From: a virus
Taxonomy: Duplodnaviria > Heunggongvirae > Uroviricota > Caudoviricetes
IMG/VR virus record: IMGVR_UViG_2541047861_000013
Reading direction: 5' to 3' (one strand)
DNA: 20,787 bases
In this document: piece by piece, positions 1 through 20,787 of the stretch
Layout: the number at the start of each line of letters is the position of its first letter
Numbering within the stretch: the first letter of the stretch is position 1
Notes under the pieces: model-generated
Told to the model about the DNA's origin: nothing
Seen by the model: the letters and a program-made list of their open reading frames with translations, nothing else
The model's database searches: none
Translations under genes and position numbers: made by a program

Positions 1-180
1 AAAGCGGAGGTAATACACCGTAAGAGCTGGAAAAACCGTGCAGAAGTGGAACTGGCCACACTCACGTGGGTGGACTGGTATAACAATCGACGATTGCTGG
101 AAAGGCTGGGCCATACTCCTCCGGCAGAAGCAGAAAAAGCTTATTATGCTTCCATCGGAAACGATGATCTGGCAGCCTGA
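1..180 (+). CDS. IS3-family transposase (OrfB-like), C-terminal fragment; 5' part lies upstream of the window
   Basis: Frame 1 is open from base 1 to TGA at 178-180 and translates to ...ATLTWVDWYNNRRLLERLGHTPPAEAEKAYYASIGNDDLAA, which I recognise as the conserved C-terminal tail of IS3-family transposases. Absent from the ORF track because it has no in-window start. Confidence 0.7.
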   Translation, partial: KAEVIHRKSWKNRAEVELATLTWVDWYNNRRLLERLGHTPPAEAEKAYYASIGNDDLAA

Positions 181-222
181 GTTCACAGATAAAACACTCT
201 CCAGGAAACCCGGGTCGGTTCA
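1..222 (+). mobile_element. Right-hand end of an IS3-family insertion sequence (outer boundary approximate)
   Basis: Transposase 3' end at 180; IS3-family elements end in ...CA, and ...GGTTCA ends at 222, exactly where the adjacent minus-strand tail ORF gets its stop codon (TCA at 220-222 = TGA on minus). Terminal inverted repeat not verified. Confidence 0.45.
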
Positions 223-1131
223 GGCATTATCCTCGCCAACTACCTGCGAAGGGATATAGGAAATCACCTCGGCAGTTGCAGTAGTTCCATTTGCAGCAGT
301 GATACGGGCAATGCCAAAACCACTGTGCAGATATTCCCACTCAATGCCAGTATCATCATCACCGGATCCGCCCCAGCCATCCCATGATGTGCCTTCTGTA
401 TGCGAAGGGCGCAAAGTACCTGTTTTGCCTGCTGTAACGGCGCGATAGTAGTTACTGTCTGCACGGCGAATATCGCCAATCGACGTACTCTTACTGGTTT
501 CCCATACCGGCACTGAATCCACTGCAGGCTGTTCCAGATAGAACAATTTGCCTACCTGCTCCGCGCCAAAAATAGAGGCGCTTGCCGTTAACGTAATTGT
601 CCCGGTGCTGGCGCTGGCATAAACCGTCACTGACTCGTCAATATTGATATCTTCAAATGGCCCGTTCTTCGTTACCACATCAACCAGTTGCCAGTTGTCA
701 TGCGCATAGCGACGCAACTCTTTCGGCGGGTATGCCGGATGAACCAGCGTAAGCACGTCGGCGCTTTGCGTGAATTTAATTCGGAACAGATCGGCTTCAG
801 TATATGGCGTGGCAATTTCATAAATAACATTGCTGCTGTTCAGCACCAACGCACCATCTTTGATAACGCGCATGTACTGGTGTCCGAACTCCAGAGCATA
901 AGTCTGAACCGTCGAGAACTGGAACGGGATCAGGCGGCATTTCCGATTTGGGTATTTGGCGGCACCGACAAAACGCGTACCAGGTCGATTCTCAACGCCG
1001 CCATACTGCCGCACGATAAAGTTATCGCACTTGCGCAATGCCACCTGGTACTTCGCCATGTCGATACGACCGTACAACGACGGTCCAATCTCACCACCGG
1101 CAAAGCTGGGCTGGATCCAACTGATAGCCAT
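220..1131 (-). CDS. Tail tubular protein B (T7 gp12-like nozzle), N-terminal 303 codons; probably truncated by the IS insertion
   Basis: ORF-track protein MAISWIQPSFAGGEIGPSLYGRIDMAKYQ... follows the N-terminal pattern I remember for T7 gp12 (MA.IS....GGIS..P.L), but is far shorter than the ~800 aa of that family; stop codon coincides with the putative IS end; start overlaps upstream stop (ATGA). Confidence 0.5.
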   Translation of the reverse strand: MAISWIQPSFAGGEIGPSLYGRIDMAKYQVALRKCDNFIVRQYGGVENRPGTRFVGAAKYPNRKCRLIPFQFSTVQTYALEFGHQYMRVIKDGALVLNSSNVIYEIATPYTEADLFRIKFTQSADVLTLVHPAYPPKELRRYAHDNWQLVDVVTKNGPFEDINIDESVTVYASASTGTITLTASASIFGAEQVGKLFYLEQPAVDSVPVWETSKSTSIGDIRRADSNYYRAVTAGKTGTLRPSHTEGTSWDGWGGSGDDDTGIEWEYLHSGFGIARITAANGTTATAEVISYIPSQVVGEDNA

Positions 1132-6905: not shown

Positions 6906-6942
6906 TTGACATTTAACGCACGAATTATTACCTTTCAGGTAA
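6906..6942 (+). promoter_or_regulatory. Promoter-like TTGACA followed by a perfect TTACC-N5-GGTAA operator (6928-6942)
   Basis: TTGACA at 6906-6911; perfect 15-bp palindrome TTACCTTTCAGGTAA at 6928-6942. Which strand it serves (plus toward the tRNA, or minus toward the portal operon) is unresolved. Confidence 0.35.
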
Positions 6943-7264
6943 CCAAAGAATTCACTCCAGTTACTAATCTGACTGGCTTGTCGTTAAATTGAACAGGTGG
7001 GGTGAGCTTTTATTTTGAGCAGTACGGCGTATGGCACATGCGCCGATAGCGGTCTGGATACGTTTAAGGGGCACCCTCCCTTGCTCGGGCAAACGAACCA
7101 GGTAGCCGGAATGTGCAAGTCGAGCGGTTTTATTCCGCGCACGGGGATTCACCATCCCGGCGATTCGGTGTGACACCTCGGAAGAGACGAGGGTACAACG
7201 ATGAGAGCATTTATGGAGCCGCGACAAAGTGTGGCGCCTTAACAGGCTAAGTGCTCTCAGCGTT

Positions 7265-7341
7265 GTGGCATTAGCTCAGTTGGACAGAGCAACCGCCTTC
7301 TAAGCGGTTGGTCGCAGGTTCGAATCCTGCATGCCGCGCCA
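7265..7341 (+). tRNA. tRNA-Arg, anticodon UCU (argU-like), 3' CCA encoded
   Basis: Hand-folded cloverleaf: acceptor GTGGCAT/ATGCCGC (one G-U pair), D-stem GCTC/GAGC, anticodon stem ACCGC/GCGGT with loop CTTCTAA (anticodon TCT), T-stem GCAGG/CCTGC with TTCGAAT loop, discriminator G, CCA. Close to, but not identical with, my recollection of E. coli argU. Confidence 0.85.
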
Positions 7342-7427: not shown

Positions 7428-7504
7428 CAGCAGGACGCCATTGCGATGACTTCATGCTGTAAACCCGTACAGCCACGGAAGGCATAACTCATTGCTTCCA
7501 GTTC

Positions 7505-10120: not shown

Positions 10121-10153
10121 TAACCACCGTGGTAATAGTTACCGTTGTGGTAA
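10121..10153 (-). promoter_or_regulatory. Tandem operator-like sites at the terminase small-subunit start
   Basis: TAACCACCGTGGTAA (10121-10135, one mismatch) and TTACCGTTGTGGTAA (10139-10153, perfect), 18 bp apart, just downstream of a minus-strand terminator. Confidence 0.45.
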
Positions 10154-12647: not shown

Positions 12648-12724
12648 TTACCCCTGAGGTAATTAAAAACCACATAAGACACGAAATCAATAGAGTTTAG
12701 AATATTTTGTTACCCAGCAGGTAA
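12648..12724 (-). promoter_or_regulatory. Promoter flanked by two perfect operator sites, driving the nin-like genes
   Basis: Minus-strand -35 TTGATT (plus 12685-12690), 17-bp spacer, -10 TTTAAT (12662-12667). TTACCCAGCAGGTAA (12710-12724) lies upstream of the -35; TTACCCCTGAGGTAA (12648-12662) lies between the -10 and the start codon. Confidence 0.5.
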
Positions 12725-12761: not shown

Positions 12762-13544
12762 TTACTTGATAAATCCTGCCGCCTTTCCCCGCCTGTATTC
12801 CTCCATCAGCCACTGCGCCGGTGTTATTCCCCCTAGGGTGGCGGCGTTAGGCATGCACCCGAAACTTCGCCCTGGTGGATGGTAAACGTCTCTCCCTGTG
12901 TCCGGAGGCGTACTCATTGGTTCTGGCTTTGCCTGTATGCTGATCACCGGATCGGGTATCTGCTGTCCGGAAGCCACCTTTTTCGCCCAATCATCGAGCA
13001 GCCTGCGCGCGTGTTTCTCAACCTCAATCTCGCTAAGCTGGCGCTGATACATTGCACGGCGGGTATCACATACGACCCAGTACATAACCGGATGTCGCCA
13101 CGGGAATCTTTCGGGACCACCAGGATATAAACTTTTTTCCTTGCTGTACCGGTGAAACTCCGCCATCACATCGTCAATGGTGACGCCAAGAACCATCTTG
13201 CTGTCTTTGCACCACTTGATGAATTGCCCAGGCGACGGCCAGAACGGAGATTCACTGGCGCGGGCGTGGCGCATACCAGCGTTAACCTGTTCCATTGTTG
13301 TGATCCCATTCTCCAGAAACGCAAGCATCCATTGTTTTCGAAATTCGTTTAGCTTTCCTTGCTCGCTGATAGCAGCGATGCTGCCTGGAAATGCAGCCTG
13401 TAACTGGACAAACATTTCGTTGAAAATTCTTGCAACCTGCTCCTTCTTTGCCCTTTCATCGTCAGCAGAAGCAACCGCCGTCGAGTGGTCATGCCCACCA
13501 CGAAAGCGATCGTACTCATTAAGAAGTTCTGGAGTTGATTTCAT
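12762..13544 (-). CDS. Lambda P-like replication protein (DnaB helicase loader)
   Basis: WMLAFLENGITTMEQVNAGMRHARASESPFWPSPGQFIKWC is near-identical to the lambda P segment as I recall it (WVLAFRENGITTMEQVNAGMRVARRQNRPFLPSPGQFVAWC); start set at the ATG (MKSTPELL) with GAGGTG SD. Confidence 0.75.
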   Translation of the reverse strand: MKSTPELLNEYDRFRGGHDHSTAVASADDERAKKEQVARIFNEMFVQLQAAFPGSIAAISEQGKLNEFRKQWMLAFLENGITTMEQVNAGMRHARASESPFWPSPGQFIKWCKDSKMVLGVTIDDVMAEFHRYSKEKSLYPGGPERFPWRHPVMYWVVCDTRRAMYQRQLSEIEVEKHARRLLDDWAKKVASGQQIPDPVISIQAKPEPMSTPPDTGRDVYHPPGRSFGCMPNAATLGGITPAQWLMEEYRRGKAAGFIK

Positions 13545-14352
13545 CCCACACCTCATCTATCCAGTCAGTGTTATGCCAGTCAAGGCTCTTTCTGACTTCA
13601 CCTGATTTCTGTCTACAGAACTGGATGCGCCTTGCCAGCTTCTGCTCCCACTGTGCCTGATGGTATGCCTTACCCTCAGCCATCCAGTAAATTCTGAACT
13701 CTGCAAGTTCCTGTGCCGTTGGCAGACTGTCCAGGTAGATTCCCTGCAATGAGCTTTTCCGAAGAAAGTCATCTGATGGCTGCCATTGTTCATGCATGAC
13801 AAATTTACCTAATTGCCCTGGCCCACCAGGAGGAACAAAGTTATTCATCACGGCGTTGTTTGCGCCGGGGTCATGAGGAACAGAATCCCCGGTTTTTGTC
13901 CTGCTCTCCCTCTCTTGGTTAAATGACTGGTTATATGACTGGTTCTGGATCCCGTTTTTGGGATCATTCAACATCCCGTTTTTGGGATCATTCAACATCC
14001 CGTTTTTGGGTATATTCCCGTTTTCGGTAACATTACCGTTTTCGGGTTCATTGCCCCCCTCCCGGTTGCCTTTAATGTTCCCGTTTTTGGTTATATTAAG
14101 AGAGAAAACCCGCACTCTTTTTGTCGCTCCCTTTCTCTCTCCGGTATCTGAAATAAGCCCCATTTTCATGAGCGATATAAGCCCGGCCTGCACGGTTTTT
14201 TTATTCAGGCAAGTGTCTTTAACGAGGCGTTCTATGCTGGGGTAGCAGAGGTTATATTCATCGGCTCTGTCAGCCATCGAGAGCAGTATGAGCTTTAATG
14301 ATGAGCTACCTGGATCTGTCTCCCAGGCCCAATCTGTTGCATGTCTGCTCAT
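13519..14352 (-). CDS. Lambda O-like replication initiator with origin iterons inside the gene
   Basis: Sits upstream of and overlapping the P-like gene; central Asn/Gly-rich repeats (NGMLNDPKNGMLNDPKNG) are encoded by the DNA iterons. Confidence 0.55.
   Translation of the reverse strand: MSRHATDWAWETDPGSSSLKLILLSMADRADEYNLCYPSIERLVKDTCLNKKTVQAGLISLMKMGLISDTGERKGATKRVRVFSLNITKNGNIKGNREGGNEPENGNVTENGNIPKNGMLNDPKNGMLNDPKNGIQNQSYNQSFNQERESRTKTGDSVPHDPGANNAVMNNFVPPGGPGQLGKFVMHEQWQPSDDFLRKSSLQGIYLDSLPTAQELAEFRIYWMAEGKAYHQAQWEQKLARRIQFCRQKSGEVRKSLDWHNTDWIDEVWDEINSRTS
13951..14091. repeat. Origin iterons: CCCGTTTTTGGG cores
   Basis: Three perfect copies at 24-bp spacing (13951, 13975, 13999) plus degenerate copies at 14017, 14035 and 14080, all within the O-like ORF. 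Confidence 0.6.
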
Positions 14353-14367
14353 GATTAATCTCCGCTA

Positions 14368-14568
14368 TCAGCTTGAGTGTTGTGGGGAGGAATTAATCAT
14401 GATCTGCTTAATCTCTGCCCTGATGCGACGGTTTGATTCCATGGTGCACTCAACACAGTGTCCGTTGTAAACCCAGCGTTCACTGTCATGTCCGTGCTTA
14501 CATGGTTTTCCGGTGTAGTAGCGTTTAAGTCCGCGCTTTGCGGCATCAATACGTGTAATGATTTCCAT
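14368..14568 (-). CDS. Small Cys/His-cluster protein (66 aa) in the cII-equivalent position
   Basis: MEIITRI...KPCKHGHDSERWVYNGHCVEC...; ATG at 14568 with AGGG SD; the longer track ORF (to 14631) has no SD. Confidence 0.4.
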   Translation of the reverse strand: MEIITRIDAAKRGLKRYYTGKPCKHGHDSERWVYNGHCVECTMESNRRIRAEIKQIMINSSPQHSS

Positions 14569-14602
14569 GGTAAGCCCTGTTATTAGTATTGGGATTACGG
14601 TT

Positions 14603-14663
14603 ATTTTGTGCTGACACAAAAAAAAGATCAACCAGATTTGGTTTTTTATTACCTTTGAGGTAC
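14603..14663 (-). promoter_or_regulatory. Promoter with upstream operator-like site between cro and the replication genes
   Basis: Minus-strand -35 TTGATC (plus 14626-14631), 17-bp spacer, -10 CAAAAT (14603-14608); TTACCTTTGAGGTAC (14649-14663, one mismatch) 18 bp upstream of the -35. Confidence 0.35.
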
Positions 14664-14674
14664 GAATAGATATG

Positions 14675-14696
14675 AAAAGACCGCCGGGTGGCGGTC
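14675..14696 (-). terminator. Intrinsic terminator downstream of the Cro-like gene
   Basis: GACCGCC-acc c-GGCGGTC followed on the minus strand by UUUUCAU. Confidence 0.5.
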
Positions 14697-14718
14697 TACA
14701 GAGGGTTGTGGCTGGATA

Positions 14719-14949
14719 TCATGAGTAGAAGAAGTATGCCAGTTCTGCTTTTGAGCGCAGCCATTGTCTTGTTTTACAGGCTTTAAAAAGCCCATTCATC
14801 AATACTTTACCTGGCATTTTTCGCTTACCTGTTAAGTGAGTCTGGATATAGTGACTCGTCGTTCCGGCTTCCTGTGCGAAGGCTTCACGCTCATCCGGAG
14901 TAAGTGCAAGCCAGTGCTTTTTGAAATCGAAATGTCCGTTATCGCTCAT
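14719..14949 (-). CDS. Cro-like HTH regulator (76 aa)
   Basis: Divergent from the repressor gene across the operator region; small protein with a putative HTH; weak SD. Confidence 0.55.
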   Translation of the reverse strand: MSDNGHFDFKKHWLALTPDEREAFAQEAGTTSHYIQTHLTGKRKMPGKVLMNGLFKACKTRQWLRSKAELAYFFYS

Positions 14950-14985
14950 AGCTATTGCCTGATATTTATTTCAGATAATAAATAT

Positions 14986-15048
14986 TCACCCATAAGGTAA
15001 CAAAAATCAAGGATAGTTACCTATGAGGTGCATTTACCTGTTGGGTAA
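14986..15048. promoter_or_regulatory. Right-operator-like region with three TTACC-N5-GGTAA-type sites between the Cro-like and repressor genes
   Basis: TCACCCATAAGGTAA (14986-15000), TTACCTATGAGGTGC (15017-15031), TTACCTGTTGGGTAA (15034-15048, perfect); the last two are 17 bp apart. Confidence 0.6.
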
Positions 15049-15103
15049 TATTGCTTTAAATTGAATCATCTACTGATTCATATATGAGGCGATTTTCCAG
15101 AAA

Positions 15104-15688
15104 ATGAAAAGTATCCAGGACGTCCGCAGGCAAAATCTCAACGACTTGATCGACCGTGAATTCAATGGTGTTCAGACGCGGATGGCAGAAAAACTTGGAA
15201 CTCAGGCAAATCTGGTAAACCGCTGGGCTCTTGGCAAGAAGGTTATCGGCGACCAGGTTGCGCGAAAAATTGAAGCTGCCGCCAATAAACCCCGTAACTG
15301 GCTTGATATCGATCGCTCGCTTTCTCAGGAAGGTTTTCAGCCTGTCGGCCCAAGCGACATTGGTCAGCTGGCGGCTCACAACCTGGAACGCTGGATGAGC
15401 GAAAGCCGCGACCTTTCAACACAGGGAAAACTTCACCGCGCATCCGGCGTCGCCCAGGTGACAATCAGCCGCCTGTTAAACAATGAGGTCAGCGTTTCCA
15501 TTTCCACCCTGGAGAATGTTGCATCCGCATTCGGGCGTCACGGCTATGAATTACTGATTCACCCGCACGACCCTGCGACTATCAACTATGACCGCTCGCG
15601 CTACGCATTGTTACCCGAAACAGAGAAGGCAAAGATCGAAAGTTACATTGAATTTGTCATCAGCCAGAACGAAAAAAACAAACAATAA
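15104..15688 (+). CDS. Phage repressor, CI-equivalent, with two HTH (XRE-type) regions and no LexA-like peptidase domain
   Basis: N-terminal HTH (GVQTRMAEKLGTQANLVNRWALGKK) and a second HTH-like segment (ASGVAQVTISRLLNNEVSVSISTLENVASAFG); no Ser/Lys autoprotease signature; divergent from the Cro-like gene. Confidence 0.65.
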   Translation: MKSIQDVRRQNLNDLIDREFNGVQTRMAEKLGTQANLVNRWALGKKVIGDQVARKIEAAANKPRNWLDIDRSLSQEGFQPVGPSDIGQLAAHNLERWMSESRDLSTQGKLHRASGVAQVTISRLLNNEVSVSISTLENVASAFGRHGYELLIHPHDPATINYDRSRYALLPETEKAKIESYIEFVISQNEKNKQ

Positions 15689-15708: not shown

Positions 15709-15733
15709 AAGCCGCCTCATGGCGGCTTTTTTA
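15709..15733 (+). terminator. Intrinsic terminator after the repressor gene
   Basis: GCCGCC-tcat-GGCGGC followed by TTTTTTA. Confidence 0.6.
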
Positions 15734-15745
15734 TTGCCAGCAAGA

Positions 15746-15822
15746 TTACCTTATGGGTAATTTTTTTAACTCATATCTATTGACATCAAACCAGATACGC
15801 ATAATCATTACCTCAACGGTAA
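15746..15822 (+). promoter_or_regulatory. Left-promoter-like region: TTGACA promoter flanked by two perfect operator sites
   Basis: TTACCTTATGGGTAA (15746-15760), -35 TTGACA (15780-15785), TTACCTCAACGGTAA (15808-15822); the -10 is ambiguous (CATAAT at 14-bp spacing or TAATCA at 16 bp). Confidence 0.55.
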
Positions 15823-18399: not shown

Positions 18400-18699
18400 G
18401 TGAGAAAGTTAAGCCGACTTGAAAAATACCACATGAATAAGGTTTCAATGCGCAGTCCGTCAAAGATTGTCGCCGTTACTCCTGCGGCGATAGAGATCGA
18501 AAAACGCGCGATTGAAAGAGAGAAAAAAGGGCAGTTCCGCATTGCCGCTCACCTTTGGCTTCAGTGTATGGATGTTGCTTCTGGTGATGTTGAACGTGCA
18601 AGGATCGCGGTTCGCAGGGACCAATGTATCACAAAAGGTAACGGCCTTCGCCGTGGCGACTATAGCGGCATAGGATGTTGTGGGGTGGTTTATGACTAA
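18400..18699 (+). CDS. Hypothetical protein (99 aa, GTG start) translationally coupled to the methyltransferase
   Basis: GAGAGGG SD 9 nt before the GTG; its stop TAA overlaps the methyltransferase start (ATGACTAA). Confidence 0.4.
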   Translation: MRKLSRLEKYHMNKVSMRSPSKIVAVTPAAIEIEKRAIEREKKGQFRIAAHLWLQCMDVASGDVERARIAVRRDQCITKGNGLRRGDYSGIGCCGVVYD

Positions 18700-19536: not shown

Positions 19537-20787
19537 TTATTCCCCCGCCATCCACTTCTCAAACTTCGACGGGGAGAACGGAATCAGATCCGTATGCTCC
19601 CCGTCAATCCATGAATCAATCATATCGGCCCACTGCTGCAACATGTAGGCGCGCTGTCTGGCGTATTCCGCTTTGTTATATACGGCGCGCACACCTTTCT
19701 GCTCATGTGCCAGAGCCTTTTCAATCCAGTCTGAAGGATAACCAGCCTCATGCAACAACGTACTGGCTGTACGGCGCATATCGTGTACGGTGAAGCCCTG
19801 AATATGCTCACCATCTTCATTTATTATTTTCACCGTTCTGTCGATCAGAGAGTTCAGCGCGGCATTAGATAATGGCTTCCGGAAATTGTAACGACCAGGA
19901 ACCAGATATTCACTTCCACCAGCGCACATCTGCAACCCAACCAATATATCCTGTGCCTGTTTAGGCAGGTAAATAACGTGCGCCCGGCTTCCCTTCATGC
20001 GGTCTGAAGGAATTGTCCATGTCCATTTTTTAAAATCTATTTCATCCCACGTTGCATTGGTGAATTCGCCTTTACGAACCATAGTGATAAGCACCAGCTT
20101 TAAAGCCATTTTCATAGTGCCCATAGCACCAATGGCATCCAGCGTGCGGAAGAACAGGCCAATTTCTTCTGGTGTCAGTGTTCGCTCTCGTGGTTTAAAT
20201 ATGGCGATAGACGAAGGTTTAATGTCAGCCGCAGGATTAAACAAACCATGACCACGGTCATTGGCGTGACGGTATACGCTGCTGATGATCTCCCTAGCCT
20301 GTACTGCTGTTGCCCGACCACCGCGTTCGACAATCCGGTCACACAAATCACGAACCATCGATGTGGTAATTTCAGCCATCATTTTGTTACCAAGAACAGG
20401 AAGTATGTCACGGTCGATCACCGCCTGCTTCATTGCGCGGGTACTGTCAGCCAGGATGACGTGTTTCATATAACTGTCGGTATGTACCGCAAACGTCTCG
20501 GCACCACGAATCTTTTTGATACCGTCACGTTTAGCCGCAGCCGGTGACTGGCCTGCTTTAAGCAGCTTCTTTGCAGCAATCAGTTCTTCTCGCGCTTCTG
20601 CCAGGCTGATACCGTCACGCCCATACTGCCCGATTACCAGTGTTTCGCGGCGACCGTTGATACGGTAGTCATAGCGAAACGAGACCGTGCCTGACGTAAG
20701 CACAGCTACATACAGCCCGTCACGATCGGAGACCTTGTACAGTTTGTCCTGCGGCTTGAGGTTTTTTAATTTTGTATCGGTAAGCAC
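19537..20787 (-). CDS. int: Tyrosine integrase (P4-type); N-terminus at or just beyond the right window edge
   Basis: 416 aa in window; N-terminal arm-binding-like region (LTDTKLKNLKP...) and C-terminal catalytic region (...HDMRRTASTLLHEAGYPSDWIEKALAHE...YNKAEY...) with the R...H..R...Y pattern. Confidence 0.9.
   Translation of the reverse strand: MLTDTKLKNLKPQDKLYKVSDRDGLYVAVLTSGTVSFRYDYRINGRRETLVIGQYGRDGISLAEAREELIAAKKLLKAGQSPAAAKRDGIKKIRGAETFAVHTDSYMKHVILADSTRAMKQAVIDRDILPVLGNKMMAEITTSMVRDLCDRIVERGGRATAVQAREIISSVYRHANDRGHGLFNPAADIKPSSIAIFKPRERTLTPEEIGLFFRTLDAIGAMGTMKMALKLVLITMVRKGEFTNATWDEIDFKKWTWTIPSDRMKGSRAHVIYLPKQAQDILVGLQMCAGGSEYLVPGRYNFRKPLSNAALNSLIDRTVKIINEDGEHIQGFTVHDMRRTASTLLHEAGYPSDWIEKALAHEQKGVRAVYNKAEYARQRAYMLQQWADMIDSWIDGEHTDLIPFSPSKFEKWMAGE

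Follow-up and report, generated by a model that had tools for sequence, protein, structure and literature searches.

The stretch of viral DNA considered here is the IMG/VR record IMGVR_UViG_2541047861_000013, a tailed-phage sequence of 20,787 nucleotides that is referred to below, at its full length, as the window. Its central element is rep (positions 15104 to 15688, plus strand), an open reading frame (ORF) with an ATG start and its stop codon included, which encodes a 194-residue master repressor of the phiV10 gp40 and SPC32H Rep family. A predicted intrinsic terminator follows the gene at 15709 to 15728 on the same strand, at the same place as one annotated in phiV10. Over the 2 kb around rep, identity to Escherichia phage phiV10 is 98.3%; at least 80% of this 2-kb query is covered by 16 phage records, 15 of them at 97-98% identity. 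Rep is essentially the same protein as phiV10 gp40 (99.5% identity) and as the repressor of phage vB_EcoP_ZX5 (ORF21; 193 of 194 residues identical). The gene order of the window, in which head and tail genes, terminase, a nin-like region, replication genes and a cro-like gene precede rep on the opposite strand, while recombination genes, an AlpA-type excisionase-like regulator and an integrase adjoining guaA come after it, is that of phiV10 and of the Salmonella phages epsilon15 and SPC32H (genus Uetakevirus). Rep is the lysogeny repressor of an E. coli prophage of this phiV10/epsilon15 (Uetakevirus) type, integrated at guaA, and an orthologue-level relative of SPC32H Rep. As argued below, it is highly likely that Rep is switched off by a small LexA-controlled antirepressor, Ant, encoded outside the window, and not by self-cleavage.

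Domain organization and fold of Rep

Residues 1-70 of Rep (15104 to 15313, plus strand, as are all parts of the gene) constitute an N-terminal helix-turn-helix (HTH) DNA-binding domain (DBD), as indicated by homology to SPC32H Rep and by matches within residues 20-61 to the Pfam HTH families YdaS_toxin (residues 21-61) and DUF739 (residues 20-55). This domain is followed by a variable and disordered linker (residues 71-88, 15314 to 15367), which is the least conserved stretch of the family alignment, and then by a second, HTH_3-like bundle (residues 89-147, 15368 to 15544) corresponding to the middle dimerization domain (MDD) of SPC32H Rep, as judged from its alignment to PDB entry 5D4Z and from the Pfam family HTH_3 (PF01381), which matches Rep with E=1.2e-9 in two stretches, the best being residues 106-147. 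Residues 148-194 (15545 to 15685) align to the C-terminus of PDB entries 5D50 and 5D4Z, and correspond to the C-terminal tetramerization and Ant-binding domain, CAD or 'TetDloop'. PHROGs places the protein among transcriptional regulator and repressor families. An AlphaFold2 model with an alignment of 27 family members (mean pLDDT 79) contains bundles of four to five helices at residues 1-60 and 84-142 and a C-terminal element at residues 147-193, while residues 74-83 are disordered, with pLDDT below 50. The best Foldseek matches of this model are 5D50 and 5D4Z, the latter with a TM score of 0.73 normalised by target length, and generic Xre-type HTH proteins come next.

Homology to the SPC32H repressor extends over the full length of the protein (BLASTP: 42% identity across 196 columns, E=2e-53) and includes its three-domain layout, although identity differs from region to region, amounting to 54% in the DBD, 22% in the linker, 32% in the middle domain and 49% in the C-terminal domain. 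In phmmer searches, residues 1-190 of Rep matched PDB 5D50_A ('Repressor', 199 aa; E=4.1e-42), and the protein also matched 5D4Z, which comprises residues 92-198 of SPC32H Rep (E=4e-20); these entries are the solved structures of SPC32H Rep and of Rep in complex with the antirepressor Ant. All 194 residues are aligned to a solved structure that is not a protease. The sequence NLVNRW of the N-terminal HTH is the same in the two repressors, and N36, R40 and W41 are invariant and L37 nearly invariant in the family alignment. Within the C-terminal domain, Y148, E149, Y162, L170 and F184 are invariant in the family; the tetramer-interface residues F187 and F190 of SPC32H align with Y181 and F184 of Rep, the latter being invariant in all 27 family members. 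As described in Acta Cryst D 2023 (PMC9986798), SPC32H Rep consists of an N-terminal DBD, an MDD and a C-terminal CAD or 'TetDloop'. The last of these forms the tetramer, at whose interface Phe187 and Phe190 sit, and is also the part to which Ant binds. The same text assigns DNA binding to the N-terminal unit of the solved protein and dimerization to the second.

A preliminary analysis of the letters alone (hereafter the sequence-only reading) had described two HTH regions in this 194-residue ORF at 15104-15688. Both are recovered by Pfam and as the two bundles of the AlphaFold2 model, and the GenBank note on phiV10 gp40 likewise speaks of 'two helix-turn-helix motifs' in a putative repressor similar to epsilon15p38. 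However, because the second region is homologous to the MDD of the solved SPC32H Rep, it would be a dimerization domain and not a second DNA reader.

It had also been claimed that Rep lacks a LexA-type autoprotease, and this has stood up to each search made. Peptidase_S24 (PF00717) has no match in the 194-residue protein up to E<=10 in the Pfam domain search that the sequence-only reading had called for; the precomputed S24 domain is found in 0 of 86 Rep homologues, which are 52-98% identical, nearly all 190-200 aa long and from Enterobacteriaceae; and no LexA-, CI- or UmuD-type fold is among the top 50 PDB fold matches of the model in Foldseek. A cryptic S24 domain was rejected on these grounds. 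Neither an AG nor a CG dipeptide, the Ala-Gly or Cys-Gly cleavage site, is present in the linker at residues 71-88, RSLSQEGFQPVGPSDIGQ. Lacking the S24 domain as well as the Ala-Gly site, Rep falls outside the LexA/CI-type class. It might still be envisaged that a cryptic or non-S24 protease site allows RecA to stimulate cleavage, and hence inactivation, of the protein, the sole supporting fact being that phages with this Rep are inducible by DNA damage. Besides the missing S24 match, this scenario has against it that the 194 residues are fully covered by three domains with solved homologous structures and no protease fold, and that reviewing work (PMC7380047) puts SPC32H under LexA-controlled antirepression and does not regard repressor cleavage as a major outcome in Salmonella prophages; we therefore consider it extremely improbable.

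The antirepressor gene of related phages

According to the sequence-only reading no antirepressor gene is present in the window, and the searches agree. In tblastn searches of the window, neither SPC32H Ant nor phiV10 gp24 nor the Bro-N protein of phiV10 had a match, no antirepressor family was matched by the window ORFs scanned against PHROGs or Pfam, and no P22-type antirepressor was found there. On the basis of the same tblastn and PHROGs/Pfam scans, we rejected the idea that one of the window's small early genes is an unrecognized antirepressor. Two CTGT-N8-ACAG matches at 2915-2930 and 7457-7472 were also rejected as LexA boxes, as they agree with the consensus at 9 and 12 of 20 positions and have G+C-rich spacers; both weak matches are also kept in phiV10, at 7264 and 2722.

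The window shows no antirepressor because, in relatives, ant lies about 11 kb beyond its left end. In SPC32H the gene (86 aa) is read from the opposite strand and separates the injection genes from the tailspike gene, and the same place is occupied in phiV10 by gp24 (85 aa, 'hypothetical'), which is 88% identical to SPC32H Ant. Ant from complete Escherichia coli prophages matches PDB 5D50_E ('Anti-repressor protein') with E=4e-47. Directly upstream of each ant there is a near-consensus LexA box, TACTGTATAAATATACAGTT, with 17-18 of 20 consensus positions, and this is the only strong LexA box in the whole phiV10 and SPC32H genomes as well as in the ant-containing stretches of ZX5 and of two E. 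coli prophages. Comparison of SPC32H with the E. coli phages shows conservation both of the box, which has the same position in SPC32H, and of the sequence around it. Scanning the region between ant and the tailspike gene for the sigma-70 consensus produced no match; a candidate ant promoter, TGGATA-17-TACTGT, would overlap the LexA box, and it is only a reading of the alignment.

With regard to distribution, an Ant homologue is listed for 16 of the 17 phage records that are 95-99% identical to the immunity region, including Phi05_1999 B, a fragment record, while Escherichia phage BP9 is not among the matches listed. Of 5426 complete E. coli genomes, 529 have the ant region and 562 the rep region. 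The exact Ant sequence occurs on at least 1000 contigs; nearly every E. coli phage or genome record gives the 85-aa product the name 'hypothetical protein'. The sequence-only reading had advised looking for an antirepressor elsewhere in the prophage, and a homologue of ant with its LexA box is indeed found in phiV10, in vB_EcoP_ZX5 and in intact E. coli prophages that share the immunity region.

For the source of the window itself, comparison with E. coli scaffold KE701088.1 (GCA_000459455.1) revealed 100% identity over the comparable stretch. The window start corresponds to an assembly gap within a copy of the insertion sequence IS629 on this scaffold, and IS629 is the reason why the window ends at position 1 and one of the reasons why the ant region is out of sight. 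Tail and injection genes continue beyond the gap, so that the prophage is not truncated there. The scaffold was read for 10 kb past the tail gene that IS629 interrupts, and over its last 4.4 kb this stretch shows 100% identity to the APEC E18055 prophage, in which the Ant protein WP_001188252.1 is encoded 5.4 kb further on, after a module resembling Arc and P22 Ant and a Bro-N gene. Since the APEC E18055 prophage carries ant, sequence identity makes it very probable that the gene is present in the source prophage too.

Proposed mechanism of induction

By homology to SPC32H, Rep would dimerize via its middle HTH-like domain and tetramerize via its C-terminal domain, and the four N-terminal domains of the tetramer would read two palindromic operators, thereby silencing the lytic promoters. 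Upon DNA damage Rep would stay uncut, whereas self-cleavage of LexA would de-repress ant, and the 85-aa Ant, itself a tetramer, would bind the C-terminal domains of Rep, split the Rep tetramer into dimers and remove it from DNA. For SPC32H, several sources (PMC7380047, PMC9638917, PMC9986798, bioRxiv 10.1101/2025.11.27.690993) describe a Rep that binds DNA as a tetramer in which paired DBDs come from different dimers, and an Ant that is made once LexA is cleaved in the SOS response. The expectation of the sequence-only reading that induction would go through an antirepressor encoded elsewhere is thus supported, as this is the published mechanism of the solved homologue. The observation is correct but already known, the Rep-Ant system having been structurally solved for SPC32H. 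The SPC32H repressor reportedly escapes cleavage, and changing one base of the LexA box is said to give rise to a virulent-like phage.

Functional data are available for phages with the same repressor. Under mitomycin C the titre of ZX5 rises from 1e7 to 1e9 PFU (plaque-forming units)/mL, and overexpression of the ZX5 repressor abolishes free phage and lowers endolysin and holin transcripts by >99.9% (ZX5 paper). Prophages of the phiV10 species in gut E. coli were induced 21-47-fold by a DNA-damaging microcin. A phage with an S24-less repressor therefore responds to DNA damage, as the LexA-Ant relay predicts.

E. coli phages of this type differ from SPC32H in carrying extra genes beside ant, namely a Bro-N gene and, in some, a module resembling Arc and P22 Ant, and both of these have to be weighed as alternative sources of antirepression. 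The Bro-N domain protein, whose gene precedes ant by a few genes (phiV10 gp23, ZX5 ORF4), is annotated as 'anti-repressor' in ZX5 and as a partial COG3617 antirepressor domain in phiV10, Rep-type operator sites are located upstream of Bro-N genes, and when ZX5 ORF4 was overexpressed the prophage count fell from 1e9 to 1e6 and rep transcripts dropped by 75% (ZX5 paper). On the other hand, that test relied on a GST-tagged overexpressed protein with no binding assay, and total and free phage titres were unchanged; the 85-aa Ant homologue was unconsidered in the study and is 'hypothetical' in the record, and neither LexA nor SPC32H is mentioned in the paper. Furthermore, there is no LexA box near the Bro-N gene, and the SPC32H record is without a Bro-N gene, though induction of SPC32H is explained by Ant. 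It is accordingly unlikely that the Bro-N protein is the antirepressor, or a second one, acting on Rep, and we retain it as a minor rival or accessory factor. The records of phiV10 and ZX5 differ in their reading from the one preferred here, as the 85-aa ant is left 'hypothetical', while anti-repression is ascribed in the ZX5 paper to the Bro-N protein. The two loci noted in this connection in the vB_EcoP_ZX5 record are 1078-1773 and 2089-2346.

The other alternative concerns a P22-type immI module, composed of an Arc-family repressor and a 300-aa protein with a 'phage antirepressor N-terminal domain', as the supplier of the antirepressor in the prophage subtype of the source. In the APEC E18055 prophage such an immI-like module does sit between the injection genes and ant. 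It is, however, absent from the inducible phages phiV10, ZX5 and SPC32H and has no LexA box, it is known from the relative APEC E18055 and was not seen in the source genome itself, and in P22 the Ant of immI type is described in PMC7380047 as unnecessary for SOS induction. That this module provides the inducing antirepressor is therefore very unlikely. As an observation in its own right, positions 13463-15193 of the APEC E18055 prophage stretch hold the Arc-family gene and the 300-aa antirepressor-domain gene, together with a YafO-type toxin-antitoxin pair, between the injection genes and ant, and the immI-like module is in this sense a second potential antirepressor in the subtype to which the source belongs.

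Several points weigh against the LexA-to-Ant-to-Rep relay as the explanation for this prophage. Rep-Ant binding, Rep tetramerization and non-cleavage were established for SPC32H and not for the present E. coli protein, which is 42% identical to it, and the details of the mechanism are taken from papers citing Kim & Ryu 2013 and Kim et al. 2016. The stretch of the source scaffold KE701088.1 that was read ends about 5 kb before the expected position of ant, and the sole experimental study of a phage carrying exactly this Rep, that on ZX5, gives the antirepressor role to the Bro-N protein. In addition, identity between SPC32H and the E. coli phages is far higher for Ant (88%) than for Rep (42%, or 49% in the C-terminal domain), and therefore conservation of the Rep-Ant interface is only inferred. 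This gap would mean either that few Rep residues matter for Ant binding, or that Ant is otherwise constrained, for example by cross-talk with other repressors.

Putative operators and promoters

Seven perfect copies of the palindrome TTACC-N5-GGTAA occur in the 20.8-kb window, compared with 0.025 expected in shuffles; spacers of 3-8 were allowed in the scan, and in matches the spacer was always 5 bp. The half-sites are the same in the window and in SPC32H. As a sequence pattern, these palindromic, putative operators flank rep at the divergent early promoters. In the right-operator region, between rep and the divergent cro-like gene, a perfect candidate site, TTACCtgttgGGTAA, is located at 15034 to 15048, an imperfect site with 2 mismatches lies 17 bp from it at 15017 to 15031, and a third site with 1 mismatch at 14986 to 15000 overlaps the PR-like promoter of the cro-like gene (a promoter-like site at 15003-14975, minus strand). 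That gene (14719 to 14949, minus strand) encodes a cro/cII-like regulator of 76 aa that resembles phiV10 gp41 and epsilon15 gp39, as supported by a match to phrog_35 ('transcriptional repressor', E=5.6e-13) and by synteny with phiV10 and SPC32H; a further operator-like site with 1 mismatch is found at 14649 to 14663, after the terminator 3' of the gene. On the other side of rep, left-operator site 1 is a perfect palindrome, ATTACCttatgGGTAAT, at 15746 to 15760, and left-operator site 2, also perfect, lies 62 bp from it at 15808 to 15822. The two sites bracket a PL-like promoter, TTGACA-17-AATCAT (15780 to 15808, plus strand; 10 of 12 consensus matches), of the early-left operon (gp39, gp38, exonuclease, RecT), and site 2 overlaps its -10 element.

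The same pattern scan located sites well away from rep. A pair of perfect sites 62 bp apart (12648-12662 and 12710-12724) lies between replication gene P and the next operon, two sites (10121-10135, with 1 mismatch, and 10139-10153, perfect) are found at the 5' end of the small terminase gene, and another perfect site (6928 to 6942) lies upstream of the head-gene operon. Putative operators are thus located at or just upstream of most transcription-unit starts, one of them inside the first codons of the small terminase gene, and the units so marked are the early left, the early right and the post-replication operons, the terminase genes and the head genes. The sites are at the same places in SPC32H and keep their spacings: the 62-bp pair is repeated at syntenic positions in phiV10 (31953/32015) and SPC32H (33604/33666), and two sites 17 bp apart occur at the syntenic right-operator place of SPC32H (34390/34407). 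Moreover, the ant-tailspike intergenic region of SPC32H and of the E. coli phages contains a Rep-type operator, some 55 bp upstream of the ant LexA box, at approximately 20877-20891 in phiV10, 20013-20027 in SPC32H, 18638-18652 of the APEC E18055 prophage stretch and 14020-14034 of the stretch from another relative.

Because putative operators are scattered across transcription units, are paired at 62 bp and follow a pattern conserved in phiV10 and SPC32H, their arrangement suggests direct, prophage-wide repression by a tetramer that would bridge sites. Exact 62-bp pairs would suit one Rep tetramer holding two operators, and Rep may in addition control either ant or the tailspike gene. We tentatively propose, at somewhat less than even confidence, that Rep acts as a prophage-wide repressor and not as a two-operator switch, and that ant would be doubly locked by LexA and Rep, in which case its release would feed back positively on induction. 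What remains novel is possibly this genome-wide, regularly spaced set of operators and the double lock on ant, and part of the operator picture may already be contained in the primary SPC32H papers.

Comparison with other repressor-antirepressor systems

The closest known system is the Rep-Ant switch of SPC32H (Kim & Ryu, J Virol 2013; Kim et al., PNAS 2016; PDB 5D4Z, 5D50), with which the present prophage shares its genus and, as detailed above, its gene order, repressor layout, operators and, in its E. coli relatives, ant. It differs from SPC32H, apart from the lower identity of Rep and the additional genes next to ant, in that one of its tail genes is broken by IS629. Other phages also respond to DNA damage through an antirepressor. 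Tum of phage 186, the antirepressors of the Gifsy prophages and Fels-2, and AntC of N15 are not known to be related in sequence to SPC32H-type Ant, and the repressors on which they act are of a different architecture; SPC32H-type Ant is reportedly structurally distinct from other LexA-controlled antirepressors. The likeness lies in the circuit, as phage 186, Gifsy-1 and -3, Fels-2 (Lemire et al. 2011) and N15 are presented in PMC7380047 as combining a non-cleavable repressor with an SOS signal relayed via a small, LexA-repressed antirepressor.

With lambda CI, P22 C2 and LexA, Rep would have in common an N-terminal HTH of Xre/Cro-C1 type, a place between divergent early promoters with multiple operators, and cooperative binding as an oligomer. 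In contrast to these proteins, its sequence has no S24 Ser/Lys domain and predicts no self-cleavage, and by analogy with SPC32H it would oligomerize via the HTH-like middle domain and a p53-like tetramerization element. A further parallel, set out in PMC9986798, is offered by Rco and Rap of the Bacillus plasmid pLS20, where an N-terminal HTH DBD is likewise combined with a C-terminal tetramerization domain of beta-strand and helix (TetDloop) and repression is relieved by a protein antirepressor; according to the same text, pLS20 Rco differs in having no middle dimerization domain and no sequence similarity in the tetramerization domain, and in responding to a quorum peptide instead of SOS.

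Other features of the prophage

The 3' end of IS629, identified by sequence match, occupies positions 1 to 222 (plus strand) within a gp15-like tail gene. It is a simple insertion with a 3-bp target duplication (GCC), and the broken tail gene (220-1131, minus strand) encodes a truncated product of 303 aa whose stop codon is supplied by the end of IS629. Because IS629 breaks the tail gene, the prophage is probably unable to make infectious particles even if induced. The IS629/tail-gene junction was found in no complete E. coli genome of the collection, and an exact-pattern scan of contigs was also empty.

Iteron-like tandem repeats are present at 13916-14052, inside a DnaT-like replication gene (13519-14352, minus strand). 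Their units, of 24 bp (2.6 copies, 100% identity), 18 bp (3.1 copies) and 12 bp (2.4 copies), encode a repeated PKNGMLND/ENGN peptide, and they probably represent a replication origin inside the initiator gene, as in lambda O. A tRNA-Arg gene (anticodon TCT; 7265-7341, plus strand) is located between the terminase and head modules, as it is in SPC32H and other relatives.

Biological significance

The main message is that a common E. coli prophage type, recognizable by its rep region in about 10% of the complete E. coli genomes, in all likelihood uses the LexA-to-Ant-to-Rep relay worked out for SPC32H, to which the present analysis adds little that is new. The 'hypothetical' label carried by ant and the assignment of the antirepressor role to the Bro-N protein in the ZX5 paper both deserve correction. 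From an applied perspective, phages of the phiV10 type serve as reporter phages for the detection of O157, and knowledge of their real induction switch is useful for engineering them. Finally, the regularly spaced operators may offer a test bed for how a tetrameric repressor with trans-paired DBDs chooses and bridges its sites.

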